Below, in pieces: positions 18,337 to 54,862 of a stretch of DNA of 64,000 nucleotides. Position 1 is the first letter of the stretch. The number at the start of each line of letters is the position of its first letter. Made by a program: the position numbers and the translations under genes. The notes beneath the pieces were generated by a model. That model ran no database searches, was not told where the DNA came from, and saw only the letters and a list, made by a program, of their open reading frames with translations. The stretch is from Rhizodiscina lignyota (Eukaryota): NCBI GenBank assembly GCA_010015805.1, contig ML978127.1:1488001-1552000 (forward strand). The letters are read 5' to 3'.

Positions 18337-20268
18337 CTTGATTGTTTGTGATTAGATGTCCCTTCGAAGAACGAATTAAGGAAAGATAAGATTGAGATAT
18401 AAGGGACAATTCAGGTGTTGTTTGTCATCGTGAATTGGTTCGCTTCTCAATGGCCTTATATATAACTTGGCCCATTTGGCACCATATGAATAGTGCGATG
18501 GAATGTCAATTGATGTTTAGTCGACATGGTGGTGCATTTGAAAGCCCAGCAATTACCCTTTGAGTTAACCAGTCTCTGAAATCCCATTTTGCCGCGGCTC
18601 ATACTGGCGGACCAAGATGCACGAACGGAACAGCGACCTATTGTATCATTCGAAGAGGCGCTCATGTAATCGGGCTGAAGGCCTATTCCTCACACGAGGA
18701 TAAGTAATGCACAAAAGCCATCTGGATGACAAAGGTATTATGCAAGATTCACCGCACGGCCCATGGCATGCCATGGCATAATATCACTAATAAAACTGCT
18801 TTCGGCCAGTCCCCGTGGAGAACTTCGCCACCCTCGGCTTCCAAAGTCACGGACTCGCCGAGTCGGGCTCACCGTATTCCGATGAAGTCGCCCGGAGTTG
18901 ACGCAGTCCGTGTGCGCAACTTTAAATCTCCTAGCTCCCGCACCTGAGGAGAGCGATGAAGAGGGATACGTTCACCAAACGTCATTCGGGCCGAGCATCT
19001 CCACACGATTCTATTGTCGAAGACTTTTGGCCGCCCTCGATACTCATCTCTTCGACAAAGCGTTCAATCAATGTTCAACAACTTGCCAGATATTCAATTT
19101 TCTGACGAACGCAGCTATTCTACGTCCGTTATTGTAGCAAATGTCAGCTATTGGGGTAGGTCCGCTGTGCGGAGTATGTCTATGTCTGGTCACACAATTG
19201 TCTCGTTTCATACTCTATTCTTAATGCCAGTATACTCTTTAGCTTTCATTGTTGGAATTTTTTTGGGCATCGCCATCATGCTTTACAATCCAAAGAGCCC
19301 TCTGTGCGTGCGTATGGAACTCTTACACTCGCGGATGCCAAATTTCTGAGCCACCTCAGTTTCTCTCAACTACCTATTATCGCGTGGGAAGGAAGTATGG
19401 ATTGTATGCATCATCAAGCAAATGGCAACGATCCCTCCAAACCTCAATATCTGTTATCTTTTCATGCGCCACTGATAGCATGGACGCTCAACGACTGGGG
19501 TCGATGTGGCGAGTGTTCTTCGATATCGGCGCCTCTCCGGCCAACACCAGATCGATCGAAGTTGATGGCTTTTGAAACTACGACACTGCAAGGGCATGAA
19601 GAGATCGCGTTCCACCCGTCTGACTTGCATTTCATCATACTTCCAAAGAAGTACAGGAATTCCGGCGGGTCGAGCCCTCATTGCGCGATACCTTATCTAA
19701 TCTCCAACTCTATCTTGGCGGTGGAAAAGCCGCGCTTACAGCACCCCGTATCCATGCCCCCGTTTGCCGCTCACACGCACCGAAGGAAGCTAGTTCCTCG
19801 CACCGTTCCGGTTCTAAACCAACCACCAACCTCCCAGATCCCCAGACCGTACTCTTGGGTTACACTTTGTCCTGTGGCGGAGGAAGAAATGGGACCTTGC
19901 GATGATCCTCAAGGATTTGCTTTGTCCGGCCCAGGCCTTGGTTAAGGCAAATCCTCCCCTTAGCTCCTCCGAAAGCTGCTTTAGCCTGCGTACTTCCTAC
20001 ACTATATGCAAGGAATCGTCCACGGGGAAGCCGGTGCTACAAGGAACCCAGAAGCGCACGCGACGGGCGAGTAGTAGGACGGCTAGAACTTATCTCCAGG
20101 GCCTTCAAGGTTGTGGATCTTCGAGCCTTTCAGAGCTACTAGCGGCTTTGACCATGATAGCTCTCATACGCCTCCAAAGTCCATGATGTACTTAAGTAGA
20201 GCTGATATCACGCATGCTTCGCGTAGTAACCTCACACTCTCACCCAAGGATTGCCGTGTGTCGCCGAA

Positions 20269-22157
20269 ATGGATTTCGAGAAGAAGCCTGAGTATGTGAT
20301 CGGTTCTGAGAGCCCGGCTCGCAGCGATACCCTCGATAGCGCAGAAGGCGTCGTTGAGAACGCTGATGGATTGCACCGCAAGCTCTCCAACCGCCAGATC
20401 CAATGGATCGCGGTAGGAGGCTCGATTGGTACTGCATTGTTCGTCAGCATAGGCTGGGGCTTACTGGAAGGTGGCCCTGGTAGCTTGTTCCTGGGATACT
20501 TCTTCTACGCCTGTGTTATTGGTGCTATCAACAATAGCATGGCCGAAATGGCCGTCTACATGCCGATCTCCGGGTAAGAAAGATATGGAGTGTTCGAGAG
20601 AGTAGCAGCCAGCTAACACAATCTAGTTCGTTCATTCGCTTCTGTGCTAAATGGGTCGACGATGCGTTCGGTTTCATGGCCGGCTGGAACTTCTTCCTCT
20701 ACGAGGCCATCTTAATCCCCTTCGAGATATCTGCTCTCAATCTCGTTCTCACGTTCTGGCGCGATGATATCCCCGTCGGTGCTGTCTGTGCGGCCTGTAT
20801 CGTGATCTACGCCATCTTGAATGTCTTTGCTGTCCGCTGGTTCGGCGAAGCGGAGTTCTGGCTGTCTTCCGGCAAAGTGCTCCTGATCATCATCTTGTTC
20901 TTCTTTACCTTCATTACGATGGTCGGCGGTAACCCTACCCACGATCCGTATGGCTTCAGATACTGGAACAACCCTGGTGCATTTGCGGAGTACATCACAA
21001 CCGGGGCTCTTGGCCGCTTCGAGGGCTTCCTTGGAGCTCTGTTCGCCGCAGCATGGACGATTGTCGGACCGGAGGTACGCCTGAAATATGCCCTATTCCT
21101 ATTACTTAGCTAACAGCCCACATAGTACATTGCTATGGTCGCCGGTGAGGCCATTTATCCTCGTGTGACCATCAAGCAGGCGTTCAAGACTGTCTATTGG
21201 CGCTTCGGAATCTTCTTCGTCGGGGGCGCTCTCTGCGTCGGGATTGTGATTCCATATAACGACCCTCACCTTACGAACATCCTCAATACCTCCGGAACGT
21301 CCACTGGCGCCGCCTCGCCATATGTTATTGCAATGCAAAATATGGGCGTTACTGGGCTCCCCCATCTTGTCAATGCCCTGTTAGTCACCAGTATCTTCTC
21401 TGCGGGCAATTCGTACGTTTACATGGCGACTCGTTCTCTCTACGGCCTCGCGCTGGACAATCAAGCACCAAAGTTCTTGACATACACCACGAGGAATGGT
21501 ATTCCGATTTGGTGTTTCTGCGTAACGATGGTCTTCCCCTTCTTGTCCTTCCTCTCTGTCGGAAGCGGCTCGGCGCAAGCTATTAAATGGTATGTCCATC
21601 CGACAGTGCCACGTGATGTCCTGAACTGATGGTTCTTAGGCTCGTCAACCTCGTTACTGCATCCCAGGTGCTTAACTATGTTATTATGGGCATTACGTAC
21701 ATATTTTGGTACAGAGCACTCAAAGCTCAGAACATCGACCGCAAGACTCTGCCATACTACGGCTGGGTAAGTTCTGCTCTTTCTGAATTTTTCCTTCCGT
21801 ATCGGGCGCTGACTTGATCAGTTCCAACCATGGTGCAACTACTTCGGCCTCACCTTCACGACCATAATCGTCTTCATTCAGGGCTACACCGTCTTCCTCC
21901 CAGGCAAGTGGAACGTCGGCAACTTCTTCACGTACTACACCATGATCTTCGTGTGTATTTTGCTGTACTTTGGCTGGAAAATTGTCAAGCGCACAAAGCT
22001 TGTGAAGCCCCACGAGGCTGACCTGGTATGGGAGAAGCCAATTATTGATCGCTATGAGGAAGCCGCTGAGCCACCGTTGGGTCTGTGGGAAGACATGTGG
22101 TTCACGACGAGGAAGGTTCTGGGTAAGGTCGGTCTTAAAAAGAAGGAGGTCGTTTAG
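20269..22157 (+). CDS. Amino acid permease (APC/YAT family), multi-exon
   Basis: LHRKLSNRQIQWIAVGGSIGTALF; FGEAEFWLSSGK; GFRYWNNPGAF; SPYVIAM; TSIFSAGNSYVY. Confidence 0.92.
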
Positions 22158-24025
22158 ATTCGGAGATGCGGAAACATATCAGCGTACTGTAAATAGATTG
22201 ATTGAAGTACGAGGCGCTGCGGCCACCTGTTATGACATGAACGATACCCAAGATAGCAATACCACAAAAGAGATATTGCGCTTTACGGAGTATGTGCTTC
22301 AGAATCAAAGGGACACCTGCAAGATCCACTTGCTGTTCGTGGTATTAGCAACGTCAGAATCAATTCCGATGCTGATGACGATTACTCTAGCTTAATGAAA
22401 CAGTTAACTGCGTTTATTATATCATCGGTATTGTTCTCCACTATGCGAATCCTTCTGGATCGCTGGAACACACTGCTGGAAATTATCGAATCTTGTAAAA
22501 CAGTAGCAGGATCTCGCTGCGCACTTCCAAGGATTTTGCGAATGCTTACTTGAAGCGTGAGACGAATGTGCATCTCGGCGACTCTATCGGGTAATGAAAA
22601 TGGGAAATAAAACAGATCAGTCAGACATAGAATTAACACTCTCTTGCAACAGTCGAGGTTCCCGTTGCAGGAGACGCTCTTCAGCATCGTAGCCAGAAGA
22701 ATATCGTATCCTAAGGGTCTCTGTTTCGGAGATCCCGAGAACGAGCTTGCACAATCGGCAGTGCCTCAAAATGTACGCTCCTTTGGCCGAAGGCGAATCG
22801 CGGGGAACTCGCGTGGTTTGTGGCATTTTTCGTTTCTAAGAGCCTGGAGAAGCCTTCGTCCTTCATCTGGGATCATTGCCGATCTTGGGGGCGGTGGAGT
22901 CATCGTGTCTTTTCACCGCCCTTTTTCACGCTGAGTGCACTTGATCCAAAGCCCGGCCCTGATTCCTCATCCCCCCGGTCTTTTCAACGTGGAGCTGAAA
23001 TCAATGGAATGATAGAACCAATCTATGCAGTGATGTGTGAGAAGAGCATTTGGAATGGATGTTGCGTTCCTGATCAATGAGCGCCATCGCAGTGCGAAGC
23101 TGATGATCCCGATCAAACCGGAGCTGAAGTTGAGCTTGGTAAATGGTATTCCCCTGAGTAGCAAGTCCCTTCAGCTAAAAGGGTGAATGCAGCGCTGACT
23201 AAAAACAGGCAACAGAGACACGTCACTCAGTCCTAGTAGAAGCGTTCAGTATCCCAAAGCTCTTTAGCAACAGCAAACTCTTTTAAACCCCTTAAGTTTT
23301 GGCCTGTTTCGTCTACCAGATGTTCTCATCAGCTTCCTACTCATGTGAATGTGATATTTCGTGGATTACTTCAGGGTGGAAACTGCCCTTCGTGCATTAT
23401 CCCATCGTATCCCTAATTGGCCAGTAAGCTTAGTATAAGCCTCCTTTGGAATCCATCTGCAAGGCACGAAACCCTACTGACGGGGATTTGAATATCCAGA
23501 TTGGTCGGAGCTGTACAGGATCAACTAAGTTAGGTGCTAAGCTACTATTACACACAGTGCTTTCCGGGTACCTTAACTCGCGTAGATGTGGGGCTTCGCC
23601 TCCCCTTCCTTGATCTCATAGAGTACATACCTCACTCATCAATTGCTGCCGGTGAATTGTTCCGAGTACGAGCATCAGAGTGTGGCTGGGTACCTTATGA
23701 GATGGATTCGGACCTCTTTGAGAACACCGCAGCAGCTTCTTTACGTACAATTTTCGAAATGAGGCACATCGGCTCTGGAGACCGTTCGAGGATCCAGGAA
23801 ACACCGCGAATAGAATCGGAGGAAGGTGAGACCACACAGCAACTTCTTCTTTGTAGCGTCACTGTGTAGCTTACTGGTCAAGGCTGTACGCCCTGTGAGT
23901 TGTTGTGCTCAAGGTCCAGTAGTATTTAAGCGCACCATTTCCACTACTCTCATCGAACATCAAGCCCAGTCCTTTCCACTTCCACAAGGCCAATCTTCTA
24001 TCAAAGGAAAATACCGTCGACAAAA

Positions 24026-24536
24026 ATGCACTCCTTCACTCTTACCATCCTTGCGGCTCTCGCTGCTACTGTAGTAGCAGTTGATACGATAGAGCTCACG
24101 AGTCAGAAGGGAGTGTACGTTGTTCCTTGCTTTTGCGTTGAACATATCGAGAAACTTTCAGCCTGACAGCCTCTTAGTACGCAATTAATCGACGCCGCCC
24201 TTGTCCACAACGATCAGCCTATTATTACGTCCGGTACGCAGCAGAATTGCTTCAGCTGGTTAGGTCTTGGATTCGCCGCAGACGACGGTAACGCGTTAGA
24301 TTCGGCGCAGCCAGGTATGAACTCGATAGATCATAGGGGTTTTCAATTACATCTTTGAGACTAACATCATAACAGGCATTTGCTTTGTTCTTCACGAGGG
24401 AACTGATTGCACGGGAACTGCTAGCTCCGGAGAAGGAAACGGAAGCCCACTCGATGTTCTAACTCTTAACGGTGGCCAATTCGTATCTCATACTGGTTCA
24501 ATCAAGGTGTACAGGACAGTTCATGGGAAGTGCTAG
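24026..24536 (+). CDS. Small secreted protein (~128 aa, 4 Cys), 3 exons; effector-like
   Basis: Signal peptide MHSFTLTILAALAATVVA. Introns GTACGT..CTGAC..TAG and GTATGA..CTAAC..CAG keep the frame. Ends ...GICFVLHEGTDCTG...HTGSIKVYRTVHGKC*. TATTTAA ~100 bp upstream. Confidence 0.8.
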
Positions 24537-24848
24537 GCACGAAGAGGTTGATTTAGTAGTGCATTAGACGGTTAGAGGCAATCCAACTACATTCTCACAA
24601 TTGCTACAGAGCCATTCCATTACAGTCGACTTCAGCACTTCCAAGAAGCTCCCACACACAGGCGAGTTTACATTCGAGATTGCCGGGGAACAGCTTGCCA
24701 GGCTTGCCTTAGAAGATCTGCCTCTCACTGTCGCGATCCCAATGCTTTCAACAATACCAGCTCCTCTGATCTAATACATGCCACATATCAGTTCGGCTGA
24801 CTCCCCGAGCCTATGTATATATCGGAGGACCCAAGATAATCACCCCCT

Positions 24849-26264
24849 TTAAATTAGTACAACATGCTGAGGGGTCGTATCTGGCAGTAGAGCATCAATC
24901 TACCCACCTATGAGCCCATGTACATAGCATTCACCAATGAACTCGAAGCGGTGCGCTATAACCTCTCTTGGCATGTAGAGTACCTGTCCACCAGCTAAAG
25001 CTGCAACAATATGTCAGGAGGTACCCAGAACGTCCTAGCGCGTGAGCACGTGCATTCGTGTAATTATAGAATTTCTTCTTCACAGATTTCTCTCTTCAAT
25101 CAATCCACGAGATTCACAAATTCGTGCTTGCTACGTTCCTCTCCGATACAATATCTTGGGGTCTGGTTGCAGCTGGCGCAACTGCCATGTAACCCCTGTG
25201 AGTGGCTGCCAGTCTCCGTACAAAGCACGTCTGGGAAAATGTAATGTCCATCCCATACCTTATACCCCTATCTTCAGGCGTCATCGTGTCAAGACGTTGC
25301 GGAAAAAGACTCTAGTCAATATTGCCGCCGCGACTTACATCGTTCAAATCCACGCCCTTGTGTATGTCGGCCAGTACCGTGGTGCGGAAAGCTTCGTTGT
25401 ATTTTTCAGTGTCTTTGACCATCGACGACCATCTACGAACTCCCTCTCATCCTGGCTCCTCCCGTATACTCGAGAGCTTTGCTATCCCGTCTACAAGGAT
25501 TCCACTGAGATGCAGCTCATGCTTCACGATGTGTGCGTTGCAGCGTTGAAAGGAATCTTGCATCCGGATGCGTTACAAGCATCGGCGTCTGATGGCCTAA
25601 GGCATTTCCTAAGCGGCACAACTTCAAGACGCTCTCGCTAGTCAGGTACCAAGGAAGGCATCTTTTCCTCGGCACATGCACGTTGCATGTGGCGCGATTT
25701 ATCTACAGGATGGACGACGTAGCCAAGGACGTCCAGACTTCGAGCTCTTTCCAGGTATAGAGACACAACTTCTTCATATATGTCGGTAGTAGAGCGCGAG
25801 TAATCCGGTAACGATTCGTTTGGACCAACATCCGTCGCCAGATTACGAGGAGCAAATACCTTGTCCCGTGAATCGGTACATTTCGTGGTCCGAGTCGAGT
25901 GCAGCAGTTGTATGAGGCGAGAGGCGGCGGAAAGGAATATCTTGTCGAACCAAGCATCTCCACCACAGTAACGCGTTTCTGAGGGGCCTGTTGCCTCCTG
26001 TTGAATCCAAGTGCGTGTCCAGTAGCGCTAGTTGAACATCTCCATGATCCCGCACCAGCCCTTGTACGTGTCGCTGCCAGGGAATGGAAATAGAGACGGG
26101 TCATCTGCAGACAACTCGGTAGAGCCAGCATTCATGACTAATTGGTATTGTACTAAAAGAGCTTGGCCACTAATTTTCTCACCGCCGTACGTGTGGCCTC
26201 GCGACTTCCTACCTTCTAACGTCTGTCTCTCATACCTGTCACAGACAGACCATGCTACTGTCAC
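24849..26264 (-). pseudogene. het-6-like HET protein, C-terminal part, decayed
   Basis: WCGIMEMFN*RYWTRTWIQQE (end of HET domain); KCTDSRDKVFA...PDYSRSTTDIYEE; MPSLVPD* (LPSWVPDW-like); FEFIGECYVHGL...HVVLI* terminus; several stops and frameshifts. Confidence 0.8.
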
Positions 26265-26460
26265 ACTGCCATTGCTTTAGCGGCCCTCCGCTGCTCCCTG
26301 TTGAATAACAATCTGGTTGAGACGCCGTTTTCTTACTAATGCAGGACGCTGAAAGCTCCAGGAGACGATGCTGAACTGCGAAATAACTTGTCCGTCTGTT
26401 GTGTACGATAGCTCAAGGAGGGACGTTGCCATCAAATTCAAGAGCGCCCCGTTACATTCG

Positions 26461-27540
26461 TCAATCATTTGCGGAAGGCCTCTTATGGTCTGCAGGTACG
26501 ACGACTTTTTCTTCGTAGTCTGGTTGAACGGCAAGGTCGCCGCTACGCCGCCTTCGAACCCATTCGCGTATCTTTCCAAAATCGCGGCACACGTGCGTCA
26601 CATCAGAGTCGGCAAAGTTGCGGTCCTTGGACTTGTAGTATCTTGTGCCGTAGACTGTTATGTCGCCGGTGCACATTACGTATTGGCGTATCTCGTCTAT
26701 GCAGTGATCTGTCACAACGGTTAATGAAAGATCGACACTGATGAAACTCGGCTTACTGCGGTGTCTAATAGACTCGTCTGTCGTCTCTATCCCGTAGTGC
26801 TCAGCGTGGAAGTATTGGTAGATCCTCGCCTTCACATTGTCACAGCATTAAATCTCGGGCTTCATAGTGCGCACATGGATGCTCACCAGACAGTGAAGGG
26901 TATGGAACATGCTCAACCCGACATAGTATCCTCCTTTGGCGTTGTCCCAGTGTAATTCATAATCGGATGTCCACAACGCCTTAGCTTCCTCCTCTGAGAT
27001 GAGGAAATCCCTCCCTATTCCGTAAAACATAGTCAGATGGAGCACGACGACCACACGATAGGAGCAGTTACACACCTCCAACCAATGCTAGCCAAGCCGC
27101 ATCAATCTCTGGGCTTGGCTCGCCAGTGTACGTGACGTTGCCGGGATTTGGCGTGAAGAGAGTGCCGTCTTCGTAGACCGACGGGTCTCCAGTGAATTGG
27201 ACGCCAACAATATCAATATGCTTCCTTGAATCGGCTTTCAGCTCCATTAGTCTCGCTGTCCTTTCCCCTAGTTCCAATCTACCGAGTAACTCTTACGAAG
27301 TTCAGTGCTCCATCCGGCTTCGAACGATCCATATCCATTTTGCTCGCCGACATCTCGTAGGTTGGACCAAATTAAAAAACAAATAAGCAGAGTCGTGGTC
27401 GAGGCAAAGAAAATGGTCAAAATTTTCCAAATGGGCGAGGACTTTCGGAACGATCGTTGCTCAGAAGCCAATAATGTGCTTGTCTCGGAATCCGATTCTA
27501 ATGTTGAAGCAATCTTTTCAAAATTTTCACCGGCCATCAT
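26461..27540 (-). CDS. DUF3328/UstYa-like oxidase #1 (5 exons)
   Basis: N-terminal TM anchor; YTGEPSPEIDAAW; FHTLHCL; spliced HRNHCIDEIRQYVMCTGDIT; THVCRDFGKIREW. Both HxxHC motifs are intact. Confidence 0.9.
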
Positions 27541-27960
27541 AATCGCGAATGAGTACGAAAGTAGCGTTCTTCTCGTTAAGAGGTACTATGCACACCGCCA
27601 TGATCAGAGACCTAGTTGCAGATACCTTTTGAAGCAAAGGGCATTCGCGCGAGATGCAGGTAATCGCGCAGGATTCCGCATGGCAGTATCTCCGTGCTCG
27701 CTTAGATTAAATCTCACCTCATCATGAGTCCACATTCTTAATAGCTCTAATTAGCGTTGGCGGGAACGAGATTAAAGGTTCAAAGTGCTAATCTAGTAAA
27801 ACACTCGGAAGACGGTCGACCTTCGATTACATCAGTGCTCTTGAGAACGGAGATAGCACGGAAGAAGAGATATAGAACTTGTGGATCATTGTTCTTGCTT
27901 TAGCTAATTCTTGTACTGTCAAATCGACCGAGTCGACTTCTCATAGACTTGTGCGTCAAA

Positions 27961-28785
27961 ATGCGGGAGTGGAGAAATCAGGCTAGAATTCATCGGCGTT
28001 CTCTAAGGCTTGTCATTGCTCTGCTGCTTCTTCTGCTCAGTCTGGCTACCCTGTACGCCAGGACTGTTGTAATCCCTACTCAGCGCCAGTGCCAGAACCG
28101 CATGTTCCTATATTCTCCTGCTTCAGATCATGTTCATTACCAGTGGACGAATTTCAAAAAGTTTTACTATCCGCCATCCGAGCTCGTTGGTCCTCCTACA
28201 CCTGAGCGGGAGCAGCTCTGGGACGAATATGTTCCAAGTATGTCTATGTTCTCGCCAATATATTAGAATTGTAGAACTGACGAAGATTGCAGACTCTATC
28301 GTATCGGTTCCATACGATCGAATCAGTGAACTAGGCCATGTCAATAACGAAAATTGGTGGGCTGTCGCCCCAGAAGCAGGAGGAGGCGTCGCGGCTGTGC
28401 TGGCTGTCGACTACCAGCTGAACTGCCTGGTAAGACCAGATCGAGAACTTATGTTGTTGTGCGTAGAATTAATCTGCGGTAGTCACTCCTCCACAGATAC
28501 CTATACAAGTCAGCGTACAAGCACATGTTCAACCATAGTCAAGTCTCTGAGCACCGGCTCAAGGCTCAGAAAAACCTCTGTTTGGAGGTCCTGCGACAGG
28601 AGTTGACATGCTACGCTGATCCCACATTGTATCTCAACTGGAGGAACCCGAAGTCTCAGAAGAATGCTGCGGCTGATCTTGGATCGTGGCACAAGTGCAG
28701 AGACTATGATGCAATAAGGGATTGGGCGTGGTCACACAGGATCTACAATTTGCATGTATCAAATGTATTAGACCTTACAGTGTGA
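27961..28785 (+). CDS. DUF3328/UstYa-like protein #2 with degenerate HxxHC motifs (3 exons)
   Basis: TM anchor; YSPA; GPPTPEREQLWD; VDYQLNCL; QKNLCLEVLRQELTCYADPT; HKCRDYDAIRDW. The frame is intact across GTATGT/CAG and GTAAGA/TAG introns. Confidence 0.85.
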
Positions 28786-28828
28786 GAATGTTATGAAAAT
28801 CCGTACACAAGCAGTTGAGATAAGTATA

Positions 28829-29799
28829 TCATTCTGCTGTTCCCGCGAAGTGTACAGGCAAGGTATTTTCCCTCCCATATCTCATGATATTGTCCCAGTT
28901 ACGACACTTTGCACTTTTGTTCAAGTTTAGTCTCATGTGATGCATGTCCGAATGTAGATCCCGCTCGATGAGATATGGGGTCACATCAGCGTTGCAGTGT
29001 ATAATGCTCCGTATGTTCTCAATACAGTGCTCGACATGTTCAAAGAGGACGTCCGGGGCCTGGTACCAAAACCTCCGGTCACTGAAATCGTAAGAGTCCT
29101 TGAACGTATACTGGCGGAGGAGAGACTATGTAAAAGTTTAGCATTATGATCTTGTAACCACTTGGCTTGACTTACCAAGCAATGGAGACGATGGTAGCCC
29201 TCATACAGAGCTCCTATCTTGCCTCCGTATCGTGGTTTGTCGCTGTCAAGATGCACCCACTGCACTTCGTTCGACTTGTTGAGGAGGTTAACTTTGTCAT
29301 CATCGATGCCTATGGCGCCATCTGTCTCAGGTCAGGAACAGCCCCTCATTGGATGGTGCGAATAAATGAATACAGTTCCAAAGTTCGTCCCATGCAGCCT
29401 CCACCTCGTCTGATGGAGGAGACGTATAGACGCTCTGGACTGACGGGTCGAGACTCGTCCATTCGTACTTGAAAGTTTCTATCATTGGTGCTGTTACGTA
29501 TCGGGTAAGCTGGAAATTCTGGGGATGCTGTAATGTTGAGACGGCGACTTACACCAATGGAACATCCTCGCGGTACACTTCTGATCAAGGTCGCCAGGAA
29601 GAAAGGAAAGGATGAATATGCATAGTGCTGCGACAATAAAAGCAGCTGGAGACCATGTGAAAATCATATCCAATGCATCCCGTGAATAAATTGACATGAA
29701 GGATAGGCTTTCTTGAATTCCCAAACCATGAGAGTCGAGTAGCGCCTTCTCGGAGTCGTCCGCTTCAGAGGTACTTCGTAAACGAAGATAGGGAGTCAT
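28829..29799 (-). CDS. DUF3328/UstYa-like oxidase #3 (4 exons)
   Basis: TM anchor; WSPM; SPPSDEVEAAWDELW; YHRLHCL; HVEHCIENIRSIIHCNADVTP; KCRNWDNI. Confidence 0.9.
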
Positions 29800-30377
29800 T
29801 ATGGTAGCTGCTATGTCTGTGTCTTTCGGGCTCGATAGATGACAGCGTTTTATCAAAATTCTATAGCCTATCCTCGGCGCAGTCGCTGTATACGCTAGAA
29901 ACGTCAAAAGTTAACTTGTCGTTTCAGTCTCGATGGAACCTTATCTCAAAAGAATACCTGCCCGTGCGTGATTGCTGAAGGTGTCCTATTTTATTATCAA
30001 TATCCCGATTTCCGCTAATCTCATACCTAGAGGCGTGATGACATGAGATTGATTTCCGTCGATTTCCGGAAACTCTCCCAGAACACTTTTGGTCAAGCAT
30101 TGACTCGCGCGAGAGCATCTAAAACGAGCTAAACAACTTGGTTTCCTGTCAGGATGCCCATCCTGGTACGTGAGTACGTGCATTCGAATATTATAGCCTT
30201 CCTCTCCCTCAGTGATTTCACTTTCTTGCAGTCAATCCACGATATTTGCTACTTCGTGAATCGTGCTCGCTACGTGCTCCGATATTTCCCCCTATAAGAG
30301 TTTCAATATCCAGCTGCTCTTGTCTCTACATTATACGAATCGATTATTCCGCAAGCACATCACATCCACATCTCAAG

Positions 30378-30598
30378 ATGAAGGCGTACATCACTATTAT
30401 CATTGCAGCCTTTTGCTCCATGATCGCTGCAGCGCCGGTCAGCCAGGGTACACTTCGTCTAATCTCTACAATGTAACAATTGAGCGAATACTAACCTTTA
30501 TACGAGTAGTCTCTTCCGCCGGTACTTCGGTAGCCAGTGAAAATCTTGCCATTCGCGAGGTTGTTGAAGAATACGATGGGGATGCGGAGAGCTGGTGA
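30378..30598 (+). CDS. Putative RiPP precursor peptide, 52 aa, 2 exons (30378-30447, 30510-30598)
   Basis: Spliced: MKAYITIIIAAFCSMIAAAPVSQVSSAGTSVASENLAIREVVEEYDGDAESW*. Signal peptide ends AAA-P; LxxR site; acidic Tyr/Trp C-terminal segment; CTAAC branch point; divergent from DUF3328 #3. Confidence 0.75.
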
Positions 30599-31003
30599 AG
30601 AGGAATAATAGTGACAAATACTCTTCGGAGAGAATCGTGTCACTTGAGGAACCCGTCAGAACAACTGAATCTTATGTACTAGTTCATTAGTTTGGCGAAT
30701 TCGGTGCCTCGTGTGAGAATGTGAGAGGTCTACATACTCCGTGTCTGTCTTTGTGTTGATTGCCGACGTGATCTTGAAGAAAGCGCGCTCAACGTTCAAG
30801 TACAATCGATTAAGGAAGGAGAGTCGCCAGAGGGTGGCAGAAAGGCTAATATGCTGATAGAATCAACGCGCTAACTGGTGAAATGCGAACGAACGAATTT
30901 GCCGGGTCCAACTAGTCAGATGCGTATAATTAGGCACCTCAAGAAATTGAGGTACAGGCCGCAGGAATCCGAGGTGTGTCATTATGGTTCGATGGGAATA
31001 CAT

Positions 31004-31294
31004 ACAGACAGCATCGACGTACAAGCGGTATTTAGAGCTGCGTAAGTGTCTAAACATATGGCGTAGCGCGTCGTGTAGATTCTCTTGGACTGAAAAGACT
31101 TCTCCGTTAAGTTTAATGTTGTATTTCGTATCAAGAGGACGGCCTCTCCGGTATGGTGCTGGGCCCCATGTGTAAGAAAGCGCAACGTACGTTGGCGCTT
31201 CATTGATCTCATGTGTCTCGAGGGCGAAAGCAAAGTCATCACCCTCTAAAGGACACAAAAGTCGAAACCCCCTCTGCATCAGAGCCTTGTACAT
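31004..31294 (-). pseudogene. het-6-like HET protein, N-terminal exon only
   Basis: MYKAL...FRLL...APTYVALSYTWG...VQENLHDALRH...LYVDAVC, then a GTATGT donor. No recognisable INQ/QV..M..IY continuation follows. Confidence 0.75.
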
Positions 31295-31807
31295 GTTGAA
31301 GAGTAAACAGAGAAGCTTCGAATACCGTCGCTACAAACTTCAAACCTCAAGGCTGCAACTCACGTGGCGACTCTTGGTACCAGGTACGATATTTTGGCCG
31401 CACGTGTCCCAGGAGCAGACGCCAGCTGGCAATGGCGGCATTGTTGGCAGGGAAAGGAACGACTCATGATAGATTTCACATAGAGAGATACATCAAAAGC
31501 CATTGAGGCGACGGAAGTGTAGAACTGCCATTAAGATAGGAGTATTGAGACACGTCGTCTGACGAGGAACACGTTAAGTTGATCACTTTCAAAGTACCCT
31601 GTGGCGGTGCAAGCCCCTGAGCTAGCCCCACGCCCAGTCTTGGACTCTTGGAAAGCCACCCCTGGACGCCTTCCGTCATAAGGCGCCCGCCGTAATCCTA
31701 CCACCTACATACCTGCTAAAACTCCACGCGCTACTGTCAAGTTCCGAATCCAGTGGAAAACAGTCAATAAACTCCTCTCATGTGCTAGAGCCCTACGGCA
31801 ATTGCGG

Positions 31808-32992
31808 ATGTTTCGACCGTCTCACCACGCAAACGACTCGCGAACCGCATTCAGGAACCCATGGCCGTCAGCGCAGCCGCCAACATGGGCAGATTTTACC
31901 TCCATGTCCCTCCCGTTCAGCTGGTATCCGAAAGACTCGCCAGTTGAACGGCCTCCTATCAAAGTCGTCGCTCCAGACTGGGGCGCCTCCAAACTTAAGA
32001 ACCAGAGCACCACGGACTACGTTGTCGGCACATGGCTCGGCCACGCCAGCGTTCTGGTGGAATTCAAGCCTCTGTCATCTACAGTCAAGAACAAAAGCCT
32101 CTACGCTTTGTTCGACCCCATGTTCTCTATGCGCGCTGGGCCAACACAGTATACTGGCCCGTCGCGATTCAACAAACCGCCGTGCAGCATCTCTGACCTT
32201 CCCGGATGTGACGTGGTATGCATATCACACAGCCACTTTGACCATCTGGACACTTCGACGGTGCTGCAAATAATCCGGTATTTCCCATCCGCGAAATGGT
32301 TTGTGCCTCTGGGGCTCCAGGAGTGGTTTGTCACGACCGGTGTCAAGGCAGAAAACGTCAAAGCGATGGACTGGTGGGACACCTGGGATGGATTTACCTC
32401 GAAGAAACTGATCGGCAAAGCCTCATCTTCGTTCAGGATTTCCTGCGTTCCGGCGCAACATAATTCTGGACGGGGAGCATTTGACCAGGGGAGCACGCTG
32501 TGGTGTGGATGGGTTATTGAACGGTTCGTCGAAGACGCCGAGGGCAGGACCAGACATGGCTCAATCTACCATGCTGGAGATACTGGATACCGGCGTTCAG
32601 CGGCATCCAAGGACGTCTGCCCCGCCTTCAAAGAGATTGGCAGCAAGTTCAATGGCTTCGATCTATCGTTTATTCCGATATGGCGAGGCGGCAGTCTCGG
32701 CTTCATCTCCTACATCGGCCTCCGTCTAAACCATCACGAGATCCCCGCACAATTCCATTGCTCTCCGGCAGACGCTGTCTTGATCCACAAAGATACAAAG
32801 TCACGCAATACGATCGCTATACATTTCGGCACTTTCGTTGGCTCGCAAAACGAATCGAACGAGGCGTTGAAGGAGTTTTATACGGCAATGAAAGATGAGG
32901 ACGTACAGACTCTAGATAGTCAAGGCCCCAATCCGAACGGTCGGGCAGGAGCTGTTGATATTGGTGAGAGCCTTCCCATCGAAGTAGACTGA
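31808..32992 (+). CDS. NAPE-PLD/Fmp30-like metallo-beta-lactamase-fold hydrolase
   Basis: FRNPW; TWLGHAS; FDPMFS; ISHSHFDHLD; PAQHNSGR; YHAGDTGY; IHFGTF. Confidence 0.9.
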   Translation: MFRPSHHANDSRTAFRNPWPSAQPPTWADFTSMSLPFSWYPKDSPVERPPIKVVAPDWGASKLKNQSTTDYVVGTWLGHASVLVEFKPLSSTVKNKSLYALFDPMFSMRAGPTQYTGPSRFNKPPCSISDLPGCDVVCISHSHFDHLDTSTVLQIIRYFPSAKWFVPLGLQEWFVTTGVKAENVKAMDWWDTWDGFTSKKLIGKASSSFRISCVPAQHNSGRGAFDQGSTLWCGWVIERFVEDAEGRTRHGSIYHAGDTGYRRSAASKDVCPAFKEIGSKFNGFDLSFIPIWRGGSLGFISYIGLRLNHHEIPAQFHCSPADAVLIHKDTKSRNTIAIHFGTFVGSQNESNEALKEFYTAMKDEDVQTLDSQGPNPNGRAGAVDIGESLPIEVD

Positions 32993-51467: not shown

Positions 51468-51477
51468 NNNNNNNNNN
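51468..51477. other. Assembly gap (10 N) followed by a poly-C run
   Basis: N run visible in the sequence. Confidence 0.99.
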
Positions 51478-53963: not shown

Positions 53964-54565
53964 ATGCGCCCTTTGAAGGCCCAGAACGGCGAGATTGAAG
54001 ACATCTCTAATGCCACGGAACTTGACAGCGCTCTCCAACAATGCGCTATCATATCTCATCGATGGGGTGGCGTTGAACTTACTTTCGACGAATTCACCGG
54101 ATGTATAGACTCCACTCGGAATAACAATACCAACGAAGCCGAAACGTACAAATAGCGATTCCAAAACCCTGATAAAGTTGCCTTCGATATAGAAGAAAAG
54201 GGGCTTTCGAAAGTTGCATGGGCCTCCTTGATGGCTCGACAATTTGGATACAGAGGAACGGACGTGGAGAAAGACGTGCAAGAGCATTTACATAAGGGGA
54301 AAGAGACATTCCAGTCGTTACAGTATGTCTGGTTGGATACTTGCTGCATTGATAAAAACAAAGTCATCAAGACCGACCAAGCAATCAATTCAATGTTCCG
54401 CTGGTATCAAAACGCCAAGGTCTGCTACGCCTATCTCGGCGATGTCTCCAACTACGAGTCTGAATGGCAAGAGGAGATGAGAAATGATGACGGACTCGTG
54501 CAAGCAGCAATAGGGCCCTTTGAAACAAGTGAGTGGTTTAAGCGGGGCTGGACATTGCAAGAACC
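53964..54565 (+). pseudogene. HET-domain gene, truncated, in-frame TAG at 54153
   Basis: AIISHRWGGVELTF; YVWLDTCCIDK; AINSMFRWYQNAKVCYAYLGDV; SEWFKRGWTLQE, after which similarity ends. Confidence 0.85.
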
Positions 54566-54862
54566 GCCTGCCCGTCCGAACCACTTTCCCTACTTAATCG
54601 GGCTTAGCTTCAGTTAGCGTAATCTATTACGACGCTAGTACTGAAGCGGTAGGACAGGGGATAAATACGTTTGAGAGATGAACTGCAAAAACGGGGGATA
54701 AATAACGCTAGCCGATCTGATAGACTAGATGCATTAACTAGCCCGCGCTATAATCCATCATAAGCTGATATAAAGTAAGAACAGAATGCCAGTCGTCGCT
54801 GCTGTTGTTCACACAATATCGTCAATTAGAAATTTTGAGAGAGGAATTTCAATTCAACCCAA

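Follow-up and report, generated by a model that had tools for sequence, protein, structure and literature searches.

A HET-family gene of Rhizodiscina lignyota, apparently split by a block of UstYa/DUF3328 genes

The window analysed here is a stretch of 64,000 nucleotides (nt) from Rhizodiscina lignyota, a dothideomycete of the order Aulographales; all coordinates are positions in that whole stretch. Within it we see two incomplete pieces of a gene of the HET family (PF06985), lying to either side of a block that holds three UstYa/DUF3328 genes (A, B and C) and one small gene with a signal-like N-terminus (Table 1). The best explanation as a whole, to which we give a probability of roughly three in four, is that a single HET gene was split by insertion of this block, with deletion of a short part of the target. 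An earlier note on the same DNA had described the block as a four-gene cassette for a peptide made by ribosomes and modified after its translation (RiPP), which had inserted into, or replaced part of, a ‘het-6-like’ incompatibility gene and so had moved as a unit; the split itself stands, with ~62 codons replaced by 4.87 kb, whilst movement as a unit is a matter of parsimony.

Table 1. Features of the split HET locus and its neighbours, listed in the reading direction of the HET gene with the flanking genes last. Profile positions and bit scores refer to the 596-position family profile described in the text.
Feature	Position	Strand	Profile positions	Details
HET gene 5′ remnant	31004–31294	minus	3–101	97 codons from ATG at 31294, no stop; profile match 31297–31001, 126 bits
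Intervening block	26136–31003			4,868 bp; replaces profile 102–163
Small signal-peptide gene (‘precursor’ of the earlier note)	30379–30598	plus		Hydrophobic signal-like N-terminus, MKAYITIIIAAFCSMIAAAP...
Second, diverged repeat copy	~30148–30283			75% identical across 99 nt (E 1e-9); between gene C and the small peptide gene
UstYa/DUF3328 gene C	28829–29799	minus		NA57DRAFT_77036 (P0157, 268 aa)
UstYa/DUF3328 gene B	27961–28785	plus		NA57DRAFT_77035 (P0156, 238 aa)
UstYa/DUF3328 gene A	26461–27540	minus		Pfam UstYa segments 55–87, 94–138 and 139–219, in order, in three ORF pieces
HET 3′ remnant, piece C1	25923–26135	minus	164–234	End of HET domain (RYWTRTWIQQE); profile match 26135–25923, 76.1 bits; in-frame TAG 26030–26028
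HET 3′ remnant, piece C2	25584–25925	minus	276–393	Profile match 25925–25584, 120.6 bits; in-frame TAG 25640–25638 (after PSLVPD)
HET 3′ remnant, piece C3	25147–25548	minus	403–543	Profile match 25548–25147, 66.0 bits; frame differs from C2; stops 25449–25447 and 25314–25312
MITE-like repeat within 3′ remnant	25013–25147			135 nt; flanks ACAATAT at 25006–25012 and 25148–25154
HET 3′ remnant, piece C4	24852–25010	minus	542–579	IGECYVHGL; profile match 25010–24897, 30.9 bits; in-frame TAG 24902–24900
Amino-acid permease gene	20230–22154			Left of locus
VHS/GAT, NUDIX and HD genes				Left of locus; Pfam scan
Metallo-beta-lactamase-fold (NAPE-PLD-like) gene	31682–32992	plus		Right of locus
VHS/SH3/GAT gene and PAK-type kinase gene				Right of the NAPE-PLD-like gene

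The two remnants were brought together through their homologues. With a 129-amino acid (aa) stretch of the 3′ piece as query (26027–25638, minus strand; 133 candidates), five full-length proteins of 587–592 aa were found (P0002–P0006; 38–45% identical), which derive from Bathelium, Trypethelium and Joint Genome Institute (JGI) data and carry precomputed annotations of PF26639 and PF06985; an exhaustive phmmer search returned 544 relatives at E <= 0.001, again with these five at the top. Aligned back to the minus strand by tblastn, the homologues account for both sides of the block: residues 1–98 fall at 31294–31001, residues ~141/161–380 at 26162/26135–25611, residues ~400–540 at 25548–25144 and residues ~536–592 at 25013–24852. 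A family profile of 596 positions, built from 19 homologues and scanned against all six frames of 24700–31500, gives the same picture, with profile positions 3–101 on one side of the block and 164–579 on the other; the two sets do not overlap, are co-linear and lie on the same strand.

What is missing between them is the family’s most conserved stretch. Profile positions 102–163 (INQ.D..ER..QV..M..IY..A..V..WLG) have no match in any of the six frames of 24700–31500, and a sub-profile of these positions scores only -0.9 and -2.1 bits on 26100–26470; similarly, Pfam reports no family in the read-through 26399–25923, whereas in the homologues HET covers residues 36–207. The central HET block (INQxDxxE...QVxxMxxIY...WLG, approximately Pfam positions 58–125) is thus absent from the locus, in agreement with the earlier note, which had failed to find a middle segment. 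One tblastn alignment, with P0003, did reach as far as 26324 (RLNQIVIQQGAAEGR); we considered this as a decayed middle, but the profile tests lend it no support and we rejected it as an extension through weak similarity. In the rest of the window the family profile finds nothing except a weak match (positions 90–132, i-Evalue 0.0011) in the open reading frame (ORF) at 54156–54617 on the plus strand, which encodes a HET-domain sequence of a different subfamily (...YVWLDTCCIDKNK...EWFKRGWTLQE). As a candidate for the missing middle this ORF was also rejected, having first and last HET blocks of its own.

Maximum-likelihood trees were built with 51 full-length homologues (for the N-terminal piece, 52 rows and 97 columns; for the C-terminal pieces, 426 columns with a quick search). 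The N-terminal piece is sister to (P0004,(P0002,P0003)) with support of 86/74, inside a nine-row clade supported at 98/89, and these three proteins also form the sister group of the merged C-terminal pieces, at an SH-like approximate likelihood ratio test (SH-aLRT) value of 92. Individual comparisons agree: P0004 is the top match of the N-terminal piece among 153 proteins and the third of the C-terminal piece, and across 75 full-length proteins the scores of the two pieces correlate (Spearman 0.61). A metagenome scan with the HET alignment gave 584 pattern matches, 348 of which encode a relative, the pattern being partly N-terminal; amongst the best 80 of these 348 loci, the best matches to the N-terminal piece (L001, L015 and L002; 42–46%) are also among the best to the C-terminal piece. 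Alignment of the halves to full-length homologues, one of the checks that the earlier note had proposed, leads both to the same proteins and the same tree node. With pieces that are complementary, non-overlapping, co-linear and on one strand, and that share this node, descent from a single ancestral HET gene is by far the simplest reading, and the split is well supported.

Looking at each remnant in turn, the ORF that contains the 5′ piece (30863–31330, minus) gives a Pfam HET match of 33.6 bits (E 5.9e-08; cut-off 22.5), which covers positions 1–57 of 146 and hence the first domain block only (ALSYxWG ... DAxC). The motifs YVALSYTWG, NLHDALR and YVDAVC are all present, with HET-like codons ending in YVDAVC at 31004; beyond this point the frame remains open for 46 unrelated codons up to a stop at 30865–30863, making 143 codons in total. 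The earlier note’s HET N-terminal sequence at 31294–31004 (minus) is accordingly upheld by the PF06985 match and the quoted motifs, but not its designation as an ‘exon’: a truncated gene fragment is seen instead. Of the best 80 metagenomic loci, we checked for an intron at the break point in the two chosen as best full-length matches to the 5′ piece; one (L001) is a single ORF of 606 aa and in the other (L015) an ORF spans residues 1–261, so that both read through the break in one open frame. An intron at this point is thereby rejected, and the break falls inside coding sequence. That the 5′ remnant has stayed open needs no selection: if stops are as frequent as in the 3′ remnant, a stop-free run of 97 codons has a chance of ~0.26. 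The 5′ piece is 100% identical to part of an R. lignyota gene model, NA57DRAFT_57407 (P0001, 193 aa; 30389–31441, minus), which splices it onto sequence antisense to the small peptide gene and looks like a chimeric ab initio model.

The 3′ remnant consists of four pieces. All of the motifs from which the earlier note had recognised a decayed HET remainder across the cluster (RYWTRTWIQQE, CTDSRDKVFA, PDYS, PSLVPD with its stop, and IGECYVHGL) are present on the minus strand, although detectable homology begins at 26135 by profile, or 26162 by tblastn, and not at 26264. The closing HET block, RYWTRTWIQQE (consensus YWxRxWxxQE), lies at 26027–25995 with a TAG stop immediately before it; at the other end tblastn extends piece C4 to the last residues of the homologues. 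Along the remnant there are five in-frame stops in 356 aligned codons, a change of frame between C2 and C3 that lies between 25584 and 25548, and an in-frame deletion of profile positions 235–275, equivalent to 44–45 residues of P0003/P0004 and a loss of ~41–45 codons. Pieces C3 and C4 are separated by a 135-nt element resembling a miniature inverted-repeat transposable element (MITE), bounded by the 7-nt direct repeat ACAATAT as a clean target duplication; excision of the element with one copy of the repeat (142 nt) brings C3 and C4 into one frame. An intron or a frameshift at 25013–25147 was considered and rejected, as a repeat insertion with 7-nt duplication fits. Taken together, the five stops, the frameshift, the 41–45-codon deletion and the 135-nt insertion identify the 3′ remnant as a pseudogene.

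This ~135-nt repeat family has the termini GTCAGGA...CCGAT, and its second copy in the locus is flanked by a degenerate duplication (GTTTCCT / ATTTCCC). Contigs from a public sequencing run break at the first copy, where summed word depth rises to 480–610 as against 152 (up to 1,300 in single contig pieces); from the broken contigs and the raised depth, we take the repeat to be multi-copy in the genome.

As for the identity of the split gene, an intact reading frame is what would be expected of a functional heterokaryon-incompatibility gene; here the frame is divided by 4,868 bp, has two deletions and one frameshift, is interrupted by five stops and contains an inserted repeat. Judged by its sequence, membership of the HET family is all that is established, and ‘incompatibility’ is an over-label.

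The block between the remnants does contain the four genes that the earlier note had placed there. In a six-frame Pfam scan of 26136–31003, UstYa (PF11807) was the sole family reported, with no transposase, reverse transcriptase or tyrosine-recombinase domain. The last exons of genes A, B and C match PF11807 at 52.7–63.1 bits (cut-off 25); the products of B and C are intact, annotated proteins that themselves carry PF11807, whilst gene A, with a transmembrane-like N-terminus from an ATG at 27540, has a spliced model that is a by-eye prediction without a matching database protein. Compared with each other, the three last exons are just 24–29% identical, so the genes are old paralogues and were not duplicated in place after arrival. 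The three also appear to share an intron position directly after a conserved ...(H/N)CL motif, and genes B and C converge, with stop codons ~44 nt apart (28785–28829). The small gene has a predicted intron at ~30447–30506 with a TACTAAC branch site, yielding ~53 aa if spliced as we infer and 32 aa if not; as read from its sequence it has a single short tail, with neither repeated cores nor KR/KK dibasic sites. Both outermost genes point outward, the stop of gene A lying 325 nt from the 3′ remnant and that of the small gene 405 nt from the 5′ remnant; all promoters lie inside the block, which is compact and in this sense self-contained. Its low-coordinate edge can be placed only within the interval from 26136 to gene A’s stop codon at 26461.

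A number of results weigh against the reading of one gene split by one insertion. At the junctions, 51 of 200 shuffles do as well as the best direct repeat and 107 of 200 as well as the best inverted one, nothing above chance, just as the earlier note had reported neither terminal inverted repeats nor a target duplication. The block is not compositionally foreign, an idea that we rejected: its GC content is 0.472 (window, 0.503), and its tetranucleotide distance is surpassed in 22% of sliding windows. A homologue search with the aligned UstYa last exons brought back, out of 2,273 candidates, only two, the R. lignyota genes B and C themselves, and a direct search with the 5′ piece recovered only the species’ own model (1 of 52). 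Nor is the break clean, 62 profile positions having been lost such that complementarity is approximate. On the side of the trees, the homologues were selected by similarity to the C-terminal piece, and the N-terminal tree of 97 columns fails to reject a grouping of the N-terminal piece with P0032/P0136/P0023 (approximately unbiased (AU) test, p 0.295). Lastly, around the best 80 of the 348 metagenomic HET loci there is no NAPE-PLD-like, UstYa or left-neighbour gene nearby at E <= 1e-4, and none of these 80 is closer than ~46–56% identity or orthologous.

The first alternative retains a single HET gene but has it split by local rearrangement, either through shuffling-in of a neighbouring cassette or through tandem duplication of gene and cassette followed by two deletions. 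The resemblance in composition between block and surroundings would suit such an origin, as would the want of transposon hallmarks or transposase domains in block and junctions and of any mobile-element domain in the flanking ORFs (0 of 73). Set against this, local rearrangement requires more breaks than a single insertion, and the window has neither duplicated HET positions nor a leftover second cassette; we consider it unlikely.

A second alternative is that two different HET paralogues, separately truncated, lie by chance on either side of a UstYa cluster that was resident there before—a situation in which the inexact break and the non-exclusive placement of the N-terminal piece would come as no surprise, and one made easier by the sheer number of HET genes, of which the unrelated ORF at 54156–54617 is an example within this very window. 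Yet the pieces are on the same strand, in order and without overlap, the gap amounts to only 62 of 596 positions, both occupy the same node of the family tree, and their identities to P0004 are alike (N-terminal, 48%; C-terminal, 50% over 334 columns); by rough reckoning, only a few in every hundred pairs of independent truncations would end up arranged like this. We regard this alternative as very unlikely.

Finally, a mis-assembly, or an intact gene with a 4.9-kb giant intron, for which one might cite the splicing of the 5′ piece to downstream sequence in model P0001, is scarcely credible given that an independently assembled contig spans 25090–31600 with no differences, that P0001, in its downstream part, runs antisense to the small peptide gene and is not HET, that the 3′ remnant contains five stops and lacks 62 + 41 profile positions, and that the block holds genes on both strands. 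The contig in question (26,408 nt, assembled from one public run, which is probably the same data as used for the genome assembly) matches with zero differences, so the arrangement is not an artefact of the assembled record. No other run, and no RNA run, was listed as carrying this sequence, and the contigs reveal no alternative joint. The one assembly gap that we note, of 10 N at 51468–51477, is distant from the split HET locus.

Returning to the insertion of the block into a single HET gene, we envisage the following course. The ancestral gene would have been a minus-strand HET gene of ~590 aa, divergent from the NAPE-PLD-like gene and intronless at the break, whose product comprised a HET domain and the C-terminal region carried by the homologues. 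A break within the HET domain, just past ‘VDAxC’, would have cost ~62 codons (~186 bp; the INQ...WLG core and the stretch following it), and the ~4.87-kb block would have taken their place in one insertion-with-deletion, the simplest mechanism. A possible route is that a DNA fragment was captured while a double-strand break was being repaired; the insertion would have left neither a target duplication nor terminal repeats. Later, the 3′ remnant would have decayed and received the small MITE-like element, the 5′ remnant being short enough to stay open by chance. The split, the complementary halves, the decay and the make-up of the block are observed; that there was a single event, that its direction was block into gene, and that repair was responsible belong to this proposal. 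With regard to timing, five stops in ~1,070 nt correspond, very roughly, to ~0.1 substitutions per site since inactivation, where some 4–5% of random changes are assumed to create a stop; the splitting event would on this estimate be old and not recent.

The block itself likely arrived as a unit, a judgement of parsimony: since the three UstYa genes are old paralogues that were not made in place, arrival together is the most economical reading. The features expected of transposon-borne or Starship-like cargo are absent, there being no terminal repeats and no target duplication at the junctions, and no transposase, reverse transcriptase or tyrosine-recombinase gene by Pfam scan of the block and of 73 flanking ORFs. 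A more ambitious proposal would make the block a self-contained mobile mini-cluster, one that has no transposon machinery and yet changes its location or passes from fungus to fungus, with HET genes, dispensable and fast-evolving, as tolerated and perhaps recurrent landing sites; we think this quite unlikely, but if true each arrival would also remove a non-self-recognition gene.

The surroundings of the locus are gene-dense, ordinary and transposon-poor (Table 1). Amongst the flanking ORFs of at least 100 aa (12–24.8 kb and 33–44 kb), Pfam found no mobile-element domain in any of the 73 scanned out of 78, the five left out overlapping the NAPE-PLD-like gene. Directly to the left of the HET 3′ remnant, and outside the inserted block, lies another small gene (23930–24540, plus) with a signal-like N-terminus (MHSFTLTILAALAATVVA...); its three ORF pieces have zero Pfam matches.

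How secondary-metabolite clusters of fungi reached their present positions is, as a rule, deduced from their patchy occurrence across phylogenies. In this locus the target gene serves as witness, its two halves still flanking the block as a dated scar, at base level, left by an insertion of cluster size. Should relatives have an uninterrupted HET gene, the locus would cleanly illustrate how a UstYa mini-cluster can arrive in one piece with no hallmarks of a transposon, as well as being an example of HET-gene loss through cluster insertion; as a single-genome case alone, it is a tidy yet unsurprising disruption of a gene whose family is known to turn over rapidly.

The nearest known proteins are the ~590-aa hypothetical proteins P0002–P0004 of Bathelium mastoideum and Trypethelium subeluteriae, with HET (PF06985) and PF26639 regions, to which both remnants align at 39–50% identity and beside which both branch. 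Compared with these, the R. lignyota copy is a pseudogene, split and without profile positions 102–163 and 235–275, in which one can still recognise the opening and closing HET blocks as well as the entire C-terminal region (profile 276–579). ‘Het-6-like’ is the earlier note’s name, whereas the proteins compared here are of the P0002–P0004 type and not Neurospora het-6; PF26639, which we take to be the Het-6 barrel family, was not reported by the Pfam scan of this locus. Amongst solved structures, none is related by sequence.

UstYa/DUF3328 genes occur in the dikaritin-type RiPP pathways for ustiloxin, asperipin, phomopsin and epichloecyclin, whose precursors begin with a signal peptide, after which core peptides recur with dibasic (Kex2) sites between them. 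With these gene sets the R. lignyota block shares three PF11807 genes beside a small signal-like gene; unlike dikaritin precursors, however, that small gene lacks both core repeats and dibasic sites of the Kex2 type, and by Pfam scan the block contains no tyrosinase, methyltransferase or other tailoring gene. The UniRef name of gene C refers to the biosynthesis of cyclochlorotine, which is made non-ribosomally, so the presence of UstYa genes is not in itself proof of a RiPP; the ‘RiPP’ label is plausible, though an over-label like ‘incompatibility’.

Amongst the papers listed, judging by titles and the openings of abstracts, none connects HET genes with DUF3328/UstYa clusters and, by title, none on Rhizodiscina lignyota deals with this locus. 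The closest parallel is offered by clusters 1 and 33 of Aspergillus fumigatus, whose position varies from strain to strain and which have transposable elements on their flanks (Lind et al. 2017, PMC5711037). Common to those clusters and to the block described here is a small gene set of secondary-metabolism type that has apparently changed place as a block. In contrast to the Aspergillus clusters, the R. lignyota case concerns one genome, its movement is deduced from a split gene, it has no transposon flanks and its target gene survives as two recognisable halves.

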